Under the pieces are notes generated by a model. That model did not search any database. It was not told the DNA's origin and worked only from the letters and a program-made list of their open reading frames with translations. A stretch of 39,213 bases of DNA from a virus (lineage: Duplodnaviria > Heunggongvirae > Uroviricota > Caudoviricetes): IMG/VR virus record IMGVR_UViG_2562617057_000005; one strand, written 5' to 3'. Position numbers and translations under genes: made by a program. Of this stretch, positions 10,959-15,214 are shown in pieces. Position 1 is the first letter of the stretch. Each line of letters begins with the position of its first letter.

Positions 10959-11279
10959 TTACAAACGACTACCTGAAATAACACGTTGGTTGATTTCGTT
11001 AATACGATCCTGCGCTCGTGCCATCTCGTTACTGTGGGCCATGGCGATCTGTAGTAACTGGATGCCAGGAGCAAAACGTCCGTTCTCCAGTTTCAGGGCC
11101 AGTCCTTCTTCGATGAGGGTGTTGAGTGCTCGGTTGATGTTTGCCGGTGACTCGTGCAGTGCTGCCGCCAGTTCACCGTTAGAAATACCGTTCAGGGCAT
11201 GACCGCGCAGCGCTTTGAGTACCCGGAGGATGCGACTGCCGGAGCTTGAAACATTCGTCTTACTCATCTTCATCTGCAT
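10959..11279 (-). CDS. putative winged-HTH DNA-binding protein (106 aa)
   Basis: ILRVLKALRGHALNGISNGELAAALHESPANINRALNTLIEEGL resembles MarR/IclR-type wHTH N-termini. Confidence 0.55.
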   Translation of the reverse strand: MQMKMSKTNVSSSGSRILRVLKALRGHALNGISNGELAAALHESPANINRALNTLIEEGLALKLENGRFAPGIQLLQIAMAHSNEMARAQDRINEINQRVISGSRL

Positions 11280-11325
11280 ACCTCTTTTGCGATATGTGAT
11301 AACCTTTTACAAAGACTCAAAATCT

Positions 11326-11514
11326 TTAGGCTGCCTGAGCCGTTGATTTCAGTCCCAGTTTCACGGCGATTTCATGGGATTTACCGTAACGGGCTTTGGT
11401 CTGCCCGTTGAGAACGCGGTATACCTCATTGCGGTTGTAGCCGTTCTCTTCTGCCCAGCGGGTGAAAGTGATCCCGCGCTGGCGGAAGAGAGCTTTGACT
11501 TGTTCTGCAGTCAT
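11326..11514 (-). CDS. Ner-like small DNA-binding regulator (Cro analogue)
   Basis: 62 aa, first gene of the leftward operon, divergent from the repressor; AAGGAG ribosome-binding site; pattern resembles the Mu Ner/Nlp family. Confidence 0.65.
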   Translation of the reverse strand: MTAEQVKALFRQRGITFTRWAEENGYNRNEVYRVLNGQTKARYGKSHEIAVKLGLKSTAQAA

Positions 11515-11614
11515 CGTTGTCTCCTTTGTTGATGCAATGATGTTTGCCTTATGTGTGATAGATTATGGTGCAGATTACCTCACCAGTCAACTTAAAGAGT
11601 GCAGAAAAACTTAC
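11515..11614. promoter_or_regulatory. divergent early/repressor control region (putative operators and promoters)
   Basis: 100-bp gap between the divergent ner-like and repressor genes; contains GTGCAGA twice (about 11568 and 11600). Confidence 0.45.
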
Positions 11615-11953
11615 ATGATCGGGTTACGTATTAAAGAAGAAAGAGAGCGTCTATCTCTTACACAGCAAGGGTTGGCTGATGCTATAGGTGTGGCAAAGAG
11701 AACTTTCATTGATTGGGAAAAAGATCGCACTTCTCCTACTGCAGTGCAGTTATCTGCACTATCAGAAATCGGTGTAGATGTTTTGTATGTAGTTACTGGG
11801 GTGCGGAATCAGCCTGTTGTTGCACCTTATGTGTCACAAGAAAAAAAAGAGTTAATGGATGCATTCGACGAAATGAGCCCCGAACAACGGAGGGCAATTC
11901 TTGAAGTTGGCAAAGTCTTCATTCAACCCAAACCAAGCAAACTCGCAGGCTGA
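11615..11953 (+). CDS. XRE-family HTH repressor (immunity repressor candidate)
   Basis: Internal ATG of track ORF 11462..11953. LSLTQQGLADAIGVAKRTFIDWEKDRTSP is a classic XRE/Cro-C1 HTH. Divergent from the early operon. Confidence 0.75.
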   Translation: MIGLRIKEERERLSLTQQGLADAIGVAKRTFIDWEKDRTSPTAVQLSALSEIGVDVLYVVTGVRNQPVVAPYVSQEKKELMDAFDEMSPEQRRAILEVGKVFIQPKPSKLAG

Positions 11954-12039
11954 TTCTGACCTGGACACAAAGGACAGGTGGTTGATCTGGACGCTTTCAG
12001 AAAGCGCCGTCAGTAGCATGGCAGAAATAGGCTGGCTTA

Positions 12040-12070
12040 CCGGAAAGCATTGCGCTTTCCGGTTCTGTTT
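12040..12070 (+). terminator. putative rho-independent terminator at the repressor/dam convergent junction
   Basis: Stem CCGGAAAGC / GCTTTCCGG with a 5-nt loop, followed by TTCTGTTT; ends at the dam stop codon. Confidence 0.5.
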
Positions 12071-12834
12071 CAGAAGTTGCAGATTACCAGTTCACGGCGC
12101 GGCGTGGGTTTACCTGCCAGACTGTAGTTTATATTCACCGTCTGTATATTCAGTTCAGTGAACACCTCTCGCATCTGTGGGATATCGTTCACCGAAATTA
12201 TCATCTTTCCTTTGATACACCGGGCCAGCTCTGCCAGTCGCGAGTAGTTCCCTTCAGGAAAATCCACACCATAGCCTTCCGTACCCAGGTACGGTGGGTC
12301 GCAGTAGAACAGCGTGTGCGGATGGTCATAACGCTCAATGCACTGTTGCCAGTCCATGTGTTCTATCACCGTTCTGGAAAGTCGCAGGTGTGCCGCTGAG
12401 AGCTCTTCCTCAATACGCAGCAGGTTGAAGCGTGGCGGGGATGTGGTGGAGGTGCCGAAACTATGCTCTGCCACCTTGCCACCAAACGCCTGCTTCTGGA
12501 GGTAGTAGAACCGTGCTGCACGCTGGATATCCGTCAGGGTTTCCTCCGGGGTGATCTGCAGCCATTTGTAGATCTGCCGGCTAACCAGCGCCCATTTGAA
12601 CTGGCGGACAAATTCCTCCAGGTGATGTTTTACCACCCGATACAGATTCACCAGCTCACCGTTGATGTCGTTAATGACTTCGATCCTGCCGGGTGACTTA
12701 AGAAAATAGAGCGCTGCTGCCCCACAGAACGGCTCCACATAACATTCATGCGCCGGAAACAGCGGCAGAATGTGTTTTGCCAGGCGGCGTTTGCCCCCAA
12801 TCCATGGAACGATGGGTAATGTCTGCATTTTCAT
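12070..12834 (-). CDS. DNA adenine methyltransferase, Dam family (orphan, phage-encoded)
   Basis: 254 aa; N-terminus WIGGKRRL...ECYVEPFCGAAALYF parallels E. coli Dam (WAGGK...ECLVEPFVGAGSVF); catalytic DPPY present. Confidence 0.9.
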   Translation of the reverse strand: MKMQTLPIVPWIGGKRRLAKHILPLFPAHECYVEPFCGAAALYFLKSPGRIEVINDINGELVNLYRVVKHHLEEFVRQFKWALVSRQIYKWLQITPEETLTDIQRAARFYYLQKQAFGGKVAEHSFGTSTTSPPRFNLLRIEEELSAAHLRLSRTVIEHMDWQQCIERYDHPHTLFYCDPPYLGTEGYGVDFPEGNYSRLAELARCIKGKMIISVNDIPQMREVFTELNIQTVNINYSLAGKPTPRRELVICNF

Positions 12835-12881
12835 AATCTGTAAGCCTTTTACAATTATTAAAAATATGGCAGGCTAGTCTG

Positions 12882-12893
12882 GTCTCGCGAGAC
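12882..12893. promoter_or_regulatory. perfect 12-bp palindrome GTCTCGCGAGAC in the dam / 89-aa divergent intergenic region
   Basis: Read directly from the sequence; flanked by partial AGTC/GACT symmetry; lies in the 234-bp gap between two divergent genes. Confidence 0.4.
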
Positions 12894-13068
12894 TGACTGA
12901 ACCCTGGTCGGCTCACAGCGCATTCCTGTGGGACGATGGCCAGCCCGGTGGGTCCGAAGCACCGGGCTGGTCGTTCTTTCATGATGCGGCAGGGATAGTG
13001 GGATTTCTGTTGAAGTGGTTTAAGAGTTTGTTGCATGCGGGTAAAGCACCGGAATACCGGAGGTGACC

Positions 13069-13338
13069 ATGAAGGTAACATCTGTCGAAGAGTACATTGA
13101 AATCTGGAGAAAGATGAAAAAACGTGAGGGCAGCCTGTTAGCCAGAGCTGCGCCCTCTATGATACCAGCAGTACTGGGGAATGCAGTAGTCACTCTGATT
13201 AGCCAGAACCAGGCAGTGACAACAGAAAGTATTATCAACTATCTGGAAGAGACAGCTCAGAAATCTCAGGGTACTTTACCTGATAGCTGGTACCAAACGG
13301 CACTGGATTTCCTGAAGGATTCAGTTTCGCAGCAATAA
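13069..13338 (+). CDS. hypothetical 89-aa protein
   Basis: ATG at 13069 with GGAGGTG 5 nt upstream (the track ORF begins at a GTG at 13063). Its 3' end overlaps the convergent 84-aa ORF by about 100 bp. Confidence 0.5.
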   Translation: MKVTSVEEYIEIWRKMKKREGSLLARAAPSMIPAVLGNAVVTLISQNQAVTTESIINYLEETAQKSQGTLPDSWYQTALDFLKDSVSQQ

Positions 13339-13489
13339 TTTCTGTTGCGAAAACCAGCAGGCACAGCCAGTCTTCATCTGCTGCGGTGTATGCAGCATCA
13401 GACATGCACCGCTTCAGTGCTTCCTCGTAAGGTTCATCTACATGGCGGATAAACTGCCATTTTCCGTTTTCTGCCTGTTTCCAGCTCAT
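13235..13489 (-). CDS. hypothetical 84-aa protein
   Basis: ATG with GAGGA 7 nt upstream, downstream of the P-loop gene; C-terminal 30 aa are low-complexity and overlap the + strand ORF. Confidence 0.4.
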   Translation of the reverse strand: MSWKQAENGKWQFIRHVDEPYEEALKRCMSDAAYTAADEDWLCLLVFATEIIAAKLNPSGNPVPFGTSYQVKYPEISELSLPDS

Positions 13490-13564
13490 GGGTATATCCT
13501 CATTCTGCTACCGATGGTAATGACGGGAAAACTTTACTGTTTTCACCTGTTGATGTGGGTGTCT

Positions 13565-13990
13565 TCAGGTTTTGTCCTGGCCCACAATCTTGCGCAATTC
13601 CGCCATCAGGAGTTCCTGGTCGTAAATCGTCATCAGTGCCGCAATGGTGGCATGCAGTGCGTCGGGCAGTGTCCATGGGTTCTGGCCTGTGGGGCATATA
13701 ACATCCAGCAGTGCATTCGTCCGGAGAATGCATCCCTCGCTGTATGACATCGGAGTTTTTTCTGTGTATTCCTCCAGTCGGATAAGTGTACCTGCCCGTG
13801 GTTTCTGCCATGTGCTCAGATCATCCCCACTCATACAGCGCTCACCGTCCACGTCTGCGGCATCGACAATGACGCTGCCTCCGAATTCCTGTTTCACCAC
13901 TTCTTCTATCCGCGCCAGTACGTAACTTTTACCGCTGCCCACAGGACCGGACACGGTGACAGTGATGACCGGATTCGGTGTCTGCGTCAC
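13565..13990 (-). CDS. small P-loop NTPase / kinase-like protein (141 aa)
   Basis: GTG start with AGGAG 8 nt upstream. Walker A GPVGSGKS and Walker B-like VIVDAADVD. Divergent from the late operon. Confidence 0.65.
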   Translation of the reverse strand: MTQTPNPVITVTVSGPVGSGKSYVLARIEEVVKQEFGGSVIVDAADVDGERCMSGDDLSTWQKPRAGTLIRLEEYTEKTPMSYSEGCILRTNALLDVICPTGQNPWTLPDALHATIAALMTIYDQELLMAELRKIVGQDKT

Positions 13991-14120
13991 ATCGTATTCT
14001 CCTCTGTGAATAATTCATCGTTTATCCTGCACATCCCGTATCCCCGGCTCTCTTAACGCGCTTTAAAATCCTTTGCGCCCTGTATTTGTGATGCTGTCTC
14101 CACCAGACAAGGAGACATTC

Positions 14121-14471
14121 ATGAAAAACCTGAAAAAATTCATTCCCCCTGTTAAAAAACCTCGCCTCAGCGGCTGGCTGATGACCTCAGTGCTGTTGCT
14201 GGGCACCATCGCTCTGGTCTCGCCACAGCAGTTGCCTGTTGTGATCTACAAGCTGGCACTCATCACGCTGGCAGCAGTGCTGGGTTACTGGCTTGACCGT
14301 TCGCTCTTCCCCAAAGCCCGTCCCGGTCAGTACCTGAAACATGACGACAGGCTGATGGCTGATGGGCGTTTCCCTGTACAGACCGGCCTTCACCTGGTGT
14401 TTTCTGCTGCGTTAATCCGCCGTGCACTGATTGTTGCAGCGGTCTGTCTGGCTGTTGCGATGGGGCTTTAA
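14121..14471 (+). CDS. putative holin / lysis membrane protein
   Basis: Internal ATG with GGAGA upstream; about 116 aa with three hydrophobic segments; immediately upstream of the endolysin. Confidence 0.55.
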   Translation: MKNLKKFIPPVKKPRLSGWLMTSVLLLGTIALVSPQQLPVVIYKLALITLAAVLGYWLDRSLFPKARPGQYLKHDDRLMADGRFPVQTGLHLVFSAALIRRALIVAAVCLAVAMGL

Positions 14472-14473
14472 TC

Positions 14474-15214
14474 ATGAACTGGCCGCAGATCACCTGGATT
14501 GTATGCATGTCCCTGAAACTGGCTTTCGAAGCCTTTCGGGTCTTCATCAGAACCGAACGCCTGTCAGTCCGCGCAGTGACCTTTCTGGTTCATATGGCAT
14601 GGGTATTCTTTGTCGCAATGTTGCTCTGGTGTGGCGGCTTTTTCAGTCAGGCATCCGCAGCACAGCCTCCGCGAGCTGCCCTGCAGTATCGCGATGATGT
14701 GATCCGTAATGCCCGGCTTGAATGGGGACTGTCTGCGCCGGTGGCCGACTTTGCCGCGCAACTGCATCAGGAAAGCGGCTGGCGACCTGATGCGGTCTCG
14801 CCGGCTGGCGCTCAGGGACTGGCGCAGTTCATGCCTGCCACTGCCGACTGGATAAGCCAGATCGTGCCCGCCCTGCGTAGCCGTCAGCCGTTTAATCCGT
14901 CCTGGGCCATCCGGGCGCTGGTCAGCTATGACCGCTGGCTGTGGGAGCGTGTCAGCGCCGCCAGCGACTGCGAGCGTATGGCCATGACACTGTCAGGCTA
15001 TAACGGTGGCCCGGGCTGGGTGCGTCGTGACCAGCGGCTCGCCGCACATCTGGGGCTGGACAGTCAGCGCTGGTTCGGACATGTCGCCACGGTGAATGCC
15101 GGACGCAATGCGGCCAGCTGGCGGGAGAACCGTCATTATCCGCAGCGCATCCTGCGTGAGCTGGCACCGCGATATCTCACATGGGGGGGCAGCAGCTGTG
15201 TGGCATCTGGTTAA
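14474..15214 (+). CDS. endolysin, lytic transglycosylase (SLT domain) with N-terminal signal-anchor/SAR-like segment
   Basis: QESGWRPDAVSPAGAQGLAQFMP is an SLT catalytic-region motif; hydrophobic N-terminal stretch VTFLVHMAWVFFVAMLLWCGGFF. Exact start uncertain. Confidence 0.8.
   Translation: MNWPQITWIVCMSLKLAFEAFRVFIRTERLSVRAVTFLVHMAWVFFVAMLLWCGGFFSQASAAQPPRAALQYRDDVIRNARLEWGLSAPVADFAAQLHQESGWRPDAVSPAGAQGLAQFMPATADWISQIVPALRSRQPFNPSWAIRALVSYDRWLWERVSAASDCERMAMTLSGYNGGPGWVRRDQRLAAHLGLDSQRWFGHVATVNAGRNAASWRENRHYPQRILRELAPRYLTWGGSSCVASG

Follow-up and report, generated by a model that had tools for sequence, protein, structure and literature searches.

A convergent, overlapping pair of small genes, one orphan and one YnaE-like, in a BcepMu-like prophage

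The gene pair

The virus record IMGVR_UViG_2562617057_000005 (39,213 nucleotides (nt), called the window here at its full length) is a nearly complete BcepMu-like transposable prophage, and within it, between a Dam methylase gene and a P-loop gene and shortly ahead of the holin gene with which the late operon begins, lie two small genes, X and Y, that point towards each other and overlap at their 3' ends. The annotated phage closest to the window is Escherichia phage PhiKM, of the genus Bcepmuvirus. Y, on the plus strand, runs from an ATG at 13069 to a TAA at 13338 and encodes 89 amino acids (aa), or 91 from a GTG at 13063; X, on the minus strand, runs from an ATG at 13489 to a TGA at 13235 and encodes 84 aa. 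The stretch common to both is 13235-13338, and in it the first codon position of Y falls on the first of X, the second of Y on the third of X and the third of Y on the second of X. A first-pass annotation made from the letters alone had proposed two convergent small open reading frames (ORFs) that overlap by about 100 bp, each behind a Shine-Dalgarno (SD) site; the coordinates and sites agree with what is found, and the overlap is exactly 104 bp. Across the loci compared here (designated by L numbers) X and Y are a rare two-gene module, real and conserved, in which an orphan gene converges on and overlaps a YnaE-like gene. Its parts, with what each is based on, are as follows.

13069-13338, plus strand: Y, a YnaE/YdfK-like protein with a predicted three-helix fold (ORF, phrog_2718, substitution pattern, AlphaFold2 (AF2) model, hhalign, Foldseek)
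13059-13065, plus strand: SD site of Y, GGAGGTG (sequence; AAGGAG or TAAGGAG counterparts in other lineages)
13235-13489, minus strand: X, an orphan acidic protein with a predicted folded core of about residues 1-58 and a tail, residues 59-84, that reads through the 3' end of Y (ORF, substitution pattern, AF2)
13497-13501, minus strand: SD site of X, GAGGA (GAGG, GGAG or AGGAG at equal distance in all lineages)
13235-13338, both strands: antiparallel overlap of 104 bp (Y codons 56-89 and stop; X codons 51-84 and stop)
13288-13338, both strands: proximal half of the overlap, a candidate dual-constrained segment (X 51-67, Y 74-89; all three codon positions tightest)
13023-13603, both strands: the X-Y cassette, a mobile module specific to the window (blastn against the relative L002; conserved prophage flanks)

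Recurrence of the pair and coding evidence outside the overlap

The two ORFs alone prove nothing, because ORFs this long are frequent by chance in the window (137 of at least 80 aa in its 39 kb). What lifts X and Y above chance is conservation: 12 distinct cassettes have the two ORFs, each with its SD site, and the overlap between them. A word search of 5.8 billion proteins returned only X itself for X and a 67%-identical homologue for Y, and an exhaustive HMMER search of 1.84 billion representatives resolved the X family into three clusters, the proteins P0004 and P0005 being found in this way; three matches to long repeat proteins (P0006-P0008) were rejected as low-complexity. Further cassettes came from the loci behind the X-cluster proteins and from additional Y homologues. 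The 12 complete cassettes fall into about five lineages, with nucleotide p-distances of up to 0.48, and derive from E. coli (Escherichia coli)/Shigella, Salmonella, an Enterobacteriaceae bacterium and metagenomes. In every one of them Y has 86-89 aa, X has 84-85 aa and the overlap measures 104-107 bp without an indel, the sole indel in a cassette being 9 nt in the N-terminus of Y; across all 13 versions of X its length is 81-85 aa. SD sequences precede both genes in all lineages, and when the window is compared with L005 the homology starts at the SD site of Y and stops just past that of X. Every complete Y gene found adjoins an X gene, and none was seen without one. Scans of the GTDB species genomes with two X profiles, and of metagenomes with a Y profile, gave pattern matches of which none was confirmed.

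Substitutions were counted as Fitch changes per site on a neighbour-joining tree, and an OLGenie-style partition into NN, NS and SN sites served to gauge selection on each frame. Where only Y is encoded, its codon positions 1, 2 and 3 show 1.02, 0.90 and 1.96 changes per site (position 3 against 1 and 2, p=2e-7), and where only X is encoded the corresponding values for X are 1.10, 0.82 and 1.96 (p=1e-5). The X frame of the X-only region has a dNN/dNS of 0.49 (confidence interval (CI) 0.38-0.62), with 1.17 for the frame on the Y strand; in the Y-only region the Y frame has a dNN/dSN of 0.45, with 1.08 for the frame on the X strand. The selection test thus behaves correctly, since the non-translated frames give about 1.1-1.2. 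Both X and Y are genuine protein-coding genes under purifying selection, and the comparison of codon-position conservation across homologous prophages that the first-pass annotation had put forward comes out in favour of both outside the overlap. The prospect it had raised, that homologues conserve just one of the frames, describes the inside of the overlap, where Y alone is clearly conserved, and fails outside it, where both are.

That only Y is a gene and X a spurious antisense ORF might be argued from the lack of any database annotation or family for X, from the NCBI annotation pipelines that pass over X in several records and from the commonness in the window of chance ORFs of its size. 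However, the 50 non-overlapping codons of X carry the strong coding signature given above (1.96 changes at the third position against 0.82-1.10 at the others), its SD site and start codon are conserved, its sequences, 37-58% identical between lineages, keep 23 invariant residues, and X is kept intact where Y has been destroyed. The substitution pattern of the X-only region refutes this reading, to which next to no credence is given.

The overlap and the tail of X

Inside the overlap the changes per site are 1.16, 0.97 and 1.42 for the site pairs Y1X1, Y2X3 and Y3X2. Y is as constrained there as elsewhere along its length (dNN/dSN 0.47, CI 0.30-0.71, P(≥1)=0.001). For X the ratio dNN/dNS is 0.83 (CI 0.52-1.31, P(≥1)=0.22), or 0.66 in the proximal and 0.88 in the distal half, neither of them significant, and X tolerates more change at its second codon position here than it does in its core (p=0.015). 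The proximal half (13288-13338) has 0.69, 0.81 and 1.06 changes per site, so that none of the three positions varies much over its 17 codons, and the invariant residues I52, L56 and P58 of X there lie opposite the invariant L82, D84 and S85 of Y. Under synonymous shuffling of the codons of Y, an open X frame as long as the observed one survives in 39-58% of trials, depending on lineage. The last 28 or so residues of X are rich in proline, serine and glycine, and residues 72-84 have a predicted local distance difference test score (pLDDT) below 50.

The tail of X is therefore weakly constrained at most, and disordered in prediction, and the part of X that lies in the overlap is mostly a tolerated run-on: the selected core appears to end at about residue 58, a few codons past the stop of Y, and the 26 or so codons that follow are for the most part run-on. 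The suspicion in the first-pass annotation that the low-complexity tail might be incidental is borne out by the non-significant dNN/dNS, the predicted disorder and the frequency with which the frame is open by chance.

An inverted repeat of 14 nt (93% complementary; 13220-13233 and 13334-13347) brackets the overlap exactly. It goes back to a similar peptide motif that each protein carries just before its gene enters the overlap (TTESII in Y, ATEII in X), and L005 shows one apparent compensatory change in it. As a conserved RNA stem it was rejected, since the pairing falls off to 9 of 20 matches in L016.

The two proteins

Y matches phrog_2718 (E=3.6e-7), and a profile of eight Y sequences aligns by hhalign to YnaE of E. 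coli K-12 (b1375, in the Rac prophage) with 94.4% probability and E=8.8e-8 over 53 columns, residues 34-86 of Y pairing with 19-71 of YnaE at 30% identity; the same result is obtained with a protein of phage Tritos that is 99% identical to YnaE. By tblastn alone the relation is weak (E=0.2), and a precomputed match to PF27475, listed for the protein P0002, is graded as faint. The AF2 model of Y has a pLDDT of 79, with confident C-terminal helices in the overlap, and its top Foldseek match in the PDB is YmgB/AriR (2oxl_A; probability 1.00, target-normalised template-modelling score 0.84, root-mean-square deviation 1.1 Å over 56 columns), at a Foldseek E-value of only 0.05 (0.052). Against the Pfam family of YmgB, PF10798, Y stays below the gathering threshold (12.3 against 22.3 bits, E=0.16; E=1.3e-3 for the best of eight members) and hhalign gives E=7e-4, these sub-threshold Pfam and hhalign matches lying in the same register as the fold match. 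On this evidence Y is a distant homologue of YnaE with a predicted YmgB/AriR-like three-helix fold, and it is predicted to be soluble; its hydrophobic stretch carries lysine, arginine or histidine in other lineages. Matches of Y to Cas10d/Csc3 from PADLOC and NCBIfam were rejected as noise (13.8 bits against a cut-off of 60).

YnaE and YdfK (PF27475), of the cryptic Rac and Qin prophages of E. coli K-12, are like Y prophage accessory proteins, of about 77-90 aa, and their genes too sit behind a long structured 5' leader. The identity of YnaE to Y is low, however, the N-terminal helix of Y is different, and ynaE is without an X-like partner. YmgB/AriR (2OXL) is a small protein as well as the best structural match, known as an Hha-like regulator of biofilm formation and acid resistance; its gene sits in the ycgZ-ymgA-ariR operon, a co-directional chromosomal arrangement and not a convergent overlapping pair. 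At ynaE of K-12 MG1655 (L028, 3849-4100, plus strand) an antisense ORF of 83 aa with a TTG start overlaps the 3' end of the gene by 109 bp. This ORF is AT-rich, has no relation to X and differs from it in codon phase; it probably arose by chance, though it echoes the geometry of X and Y. Within Y itself, at codons 17-19 or thereabouts, lies a poly-A run that is A6 in the window (13117-13122), A9 in L005 (6049-6057) and A8 in L015.

X is acidic and non-hydrophobic, and it has no match in Pfam, PHROG, PADLOC, NCBIfam or the PDB sequences and none to TomB/YbaJ; tblastn against 50,697 phage records found nothing. Its AF2 model, of low confidence (pLDDT 60), shows a beta-hairpin and two helices in residues 2-56, followed by a disordered tail. 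X is an orphan protein family found in the X-Y module only. X and Y show no homology to each other (hhalign probability 0.1%), and an origin of the pair by inverted duplication was therefore rejected.

Leader, terminators and the predicted layout of transcripts

The neighbours that matter for the transcription of the pair are these.

12862-12981, plus strand: structured element resembling a leader or small RNA (sRNA) and ending in an intrinsic terminator, just upstream of Y (RNAalifold, hairpin scan)
13565-13990, minus strand: truncated P-loop gene, 141 aa, upstream of X on the same strand (phrog_3787)
12070-12834, minus strand: D12-class Dam methyltransferase gene, downstream of X on the same strand (PF02086, E=1.7e-28)

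The leader, of about 120 nt, has a promoter-like site at 12828-12855, is divergent from the Dam start and comprises three hairpins and a strong terminator, whose stem of 11 perfect base pairs is formed by 12940-12950 and 12960-12970. RNAalifold over 10 loci gives 39 pairs, 9 of them with compensatory changes; many are G.U pairs specific to the plus strand, which would mismatch on the opposite one. There is no Rfam match at E≤1 in the window from 11000 to 15000. The same leader is present in L001, L002, L003, L016, L017, L019, L020 and L026, among them relatives with other cargo. Unannotated copies at 88-95% identity number in the hundreds among BcepMu-like prophages of E. coli, and the phages KP12 and Phi06_2974 B have it too. 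The element may be a phage sRNA or an attenuator leader. The T-run of its terminator stops about 15-20 nt short of the SD site of Y in five cassettes, so that Y in those five would be transcribed only by read-through. The 5' untranslated regions of ynaE and ydfK have themselves been proposed to be riboswitch-like, Hfq-binding leader RNAs (PMC4152368).

This terminator upstream of Y is the only conserved one. A simple scan compared across lineages found no terminator-like site that recurs inside or after X or Y, and because no recognisable terminator follows either gene their transcripts should overlap. On the plus strand a hairpin lies within the N-terminal coding region of X (13442-13460, ATGGCGG-ATAAA-CTGCCAT, followed by TTTCCGTTTT up to 13470); as a general terminator of Y it was rejected, being not conserved in other lineages, and it could end Y transcripts in the cassette of the window. 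On the minus strand the start of X lies 75 nt from the upstream gene in the window and 16 nt from it in L005 and L015, and overlaps the stop of that gene in L026; downstream of X stands Dam in most lineages. The truncated P-loop gene is the probable co-transcription partner of X in the window, judging from this spacing and strand.

A mobile insert in a variable slot

The prophage DNA that flanks the pair matches 635 of 5,426 complete E. coli genomes, and the DNA of the cassette has no match in those 5,426 genomes or in 72,556 plasmids. By blastn, homology to the closest E. coli relative, L002, ends at 13022 and restarts at 13604, and other relatives carry unrelated cargo in the slot between Dam and lysis genes. 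Because of this break and of the differing cargo, the X-Y pair belongs to a mobile insert of about 580 bp, carried in a recombination-prone variable slot that has the Dam methylase on one side and the lysis genes on the other. A direct repeat of 12 nt occurs near both edges of the insert (13007-13018, CTGTTGAAGTGG; 13547-13558, CTGTTGATGTGG) and is not significant, some 0.6 such pairs being expected by chance in the region on a rough estimate. In the E. coli relatives L002 (2677-4014) and L003 (2919-4005) the slot holds plus-strand genes for hypothetical proteins of 134 and 182 aa, and the cargo of L002 converges on the P-loop gene, with an overlap of 25 bp at the 3' end of the latter; overlaps of convergent genes thus seem to arise repeatedly in this slot.

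The P-loop gene, variously labelled 'ABC transporter ATPase' or KAP-like, encodes 141 aa in the window against 242-247 aa in relatives. It matches positions 1-139 of the 242 of phrog_3787, and its protein is 92% identical to the 247-aa protein of L002 over residues 1-138 only. The idea that X is the lost C-terminus of this truncated protein was rejected on comparison. The conserved C-terminal motif of the P-loop protein, LPDA.HA..AAL..YDQ.L..ELRK, also ends the otherwise unrelated genes, of 149 and 187 aa, that lie upstream of X in L005 and L015, a pattern suggestive of mosaic recombination at the motif.

The gene order X, Y, Dam is repeated in L016, L017, L020-22, L031 and L032. The lineage of L005, L015 and L023 (Enterobacteriaceae BIT-l23 and Salmonella Gaminara) has neither the Dam gene nor the leader; there (L005 4554-5959; L015 1982-2959; L023) Y directly follows, on the same strand, genes for a CI-like repressor and for a protein of 325-329 aa with a weakly Flk-like N-terminus (NF007987, E=1.9e-8), an arrangement in which Y may be part of a lysogenic transcript.

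Natural loss of Y

Y has been lost at least twice with X intact. In Salmonella enterica L024 (GCA_013506315.1, 3144-4343) and in L025 an element of the insertion sequence family IS3, with a 346-aa transposase carrying HTH_28 and rve domains, sits in Y after about codon 47, some 15 nt outside the stop of X, and X is intact. The viral contig L030 matches L016 at about 97% identity through X; this match breaks off within about 6 nt of the X stop, and the rest of Y is replaced. The Y of L023 differs from that of L015 by the loss of one A in an A8 run only, which shifts the frame and could be slipped-strand variation or a homopolymer or assembly error; as a single-base loss in a homopolymer of a draft assembly it was not counted as a reliable loss of Y. 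Since Y is lost while X stays, Y is dispensable in the presence of X, and hence is not an antidote to X; the converse, a harmful Y and a protective X, is allowed by these events, which are very few.

How the pair may work, and the alternatives

The explanation that best covers the whole, held here at a probability of roughly 0.55, is a mobile two-gene module in which X ends in a run-on tail and the two genes are expressed reciprocally through antisense coupling. Transcription of the X strand would pass from the upstream gene through X toward Dam and so be antisense to all of Y, and Y transcripts would arise by read-through of the leader terminator and be antisense to X. Transcriptional interference and RNA duplex formation would then make expression reciprocal, with X as the dominant, retained partner and Y as an accessory effector under tight restraint. 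Regulation by mutual exclusion or antisense, as the first-pass annotation had suggested, is a plausible fit to the DNA. A more elaborate two-layer switch of transposable prophages, in which Y would be made by leader read-through and restrained both by the X transcript and by X as an antagonist protein, with the overlap enforcing exclusivity and the proximal tail of X dual-coded, appears unlikely. Several points weigh against the reciprocal module as stated. The antisense coupling in it is read from DNA alone; the rule that Y never occurs without X comes from about a dozen cassettes and a word-indexed search, so that a sampling effect is possible; and the control of Y is not uniform, since L005 and L015 lack the leader and Y there trails a repressor operon. 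Rho-dependent termination, or terminators missed by a simple scan, could part the transcripts. As to the run-on tail, the wobble sites of Y are suppressed in the overlap relative to the rest of Y (p=0.018-0.036), the X frame is open in all lineages, for which the product of chance over four lineages is about 0.05, and both events that destroyed Y left the whole X ORF in place.

These last points are the ones that would favour genuine dual coding, that is, a functional and selected C-terminus of 34 residues in X, with about 100 nt encoding two proteins. To them are added the proximal overlap conserved at three codon positions, with I52, L56 and P58 of X invariant, the length of X held in 13 of 13 versions, the breakpoints of the two Y-destroying events just 6-15 nt outside X, and two substitutions in the overlap between the window and L009 that are nonsynonymous in Y and silent in X. 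However, the selection ratio of X is not significantly below 1 in the overlap or in its distal half, its second codon position is significantly looser than in the core, and the tail, predicted to be disordered, aligns poorly between lineages (HMMER alignments end at residues 70-72); the conserved tail residues G66 and S68 lie opposite the invariant S/W motif of Y and may be a by-product of it. Dual coding over the full overlap is judged unlikely. Somewhat easier to entertain, and still improbable, is that X and Y are two independent accessory ('moron') genes that merely abut, their overlap a neutral by-product of compaction without any coupling. The ease with which the X frame stays open under synonymous shuffling of Y, the lack of significant purifying selection on the X tail, the persistence of X without Y in L024 and L030 and the unrelated cargo in the same slot of relatives all fit such a view. 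Yet every lineage has X and Y together, the X family is found nowhere else among the 1.84 billion representatives, the module moves as a whole with its boundaries at the two SD sites, no lineage separates the genes or gains an indel in the overlap at a nucleotide divergence of up to 48%, and convergent genes that lack an intervening terminator could, on physical grounds, hardly escape some interference.

A toxin-antitoxin (TA)-like addiction pair, with Y harmful when over-expressed and X neutralising it as a protein, as an antisense transcript or as both, would account for the strict co-occurrence, for the asymmetry of loss (Y gone with X kept, never the reverse), for Y standing behind a terminator, where low expression would be expected, and for X-strand transcription antisense to Y. 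The YmgB/AriR fold, moreover, has been likened to Hha, the toxin in the Hha/TomB pair. Against this, searches for toxin, antitoxin and defence families found no match for either protein, type II and type VII operons are not convergent as X and Y are, a type I system would not consist of two conserved soluble proteins, and the asymmetry of loss comes down to two or three events only; addiction is a rather remote prospect. A classical TA system, as a form of the toxin/antitoxin-like antisense arrangement that the first-pass annotation had also raised, finds no support here: there is no hydrophobic toxin and no match to a TA family, the antisense partner codes for protein, and Y can be lost with X kept.

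Comparison with known systems

Type I TA loci resemble the pair in being convergent and prophage-borne, with about 100 nt of 3' complementarity and, as an expectation, control of the partner by antisense pairing; convergent 3'-overlapping examples are txpA/RatA and bsrG/SR4 of B. subtilis. Their toxin is a small hydrophobic membrane peptide and their antitoxin a non-coding RNA, in contrast to a predicted soluble Y, an acidic X and coding signatures in both partners. Type II systems, and type VII systems such as Hha-TomB, are co-directional operons with TA domains, and X and Y are convergent and without a TA match in Pfam, NCBIfam or PADLOC. Antiparallel overlapping genes of the kind addressed by OLGenie tests share codons between opposite-strand ORFs just as X and Y do, and the same NN/NS/SN logic applies (the frame of this class of overlap being the one named 'sas11' in such tests); the difference here is that significant constraint in the overlap falls on the reference frame, Y, alone, and that the part of X lying there behaves mostly as a run-on from a gene with its selected core outside. 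The closest working analogy may be the excludon of Listeria, in which a long transcript is antisense to a neighbouring gene and mutually exclusive expression is predicted, together with the convergent-promoter interference of phages 186 and P2: these too have opposed neighbours with no terminator between them. Those cases have mapped transcripts and X and Y are known from their genes, and the overlap of X and Y, unlike theirs, includes about 100 nt of the coding sequence of both genes.

Implications

Long antiparallel overlaps of two genuine protein genes are rare and often disputed, and for X and Y both the reality of the genes and the limit of dual coding could be shown from evolution alone. 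For the YnaE/YdfK family the module provides an initial genomic setting and a possible partner, and it defines the X family, an orphan that current pipelines frequently leave unannotated. It also points to a conserved, unannotated leader or sRNA in the BcepMu-like prophages of E. coli, Shigella and Salmonella. If X and Y are indeed expressed reciprocally, the module would be a compact natural case of antisense-coupled control carried on a mobile element.

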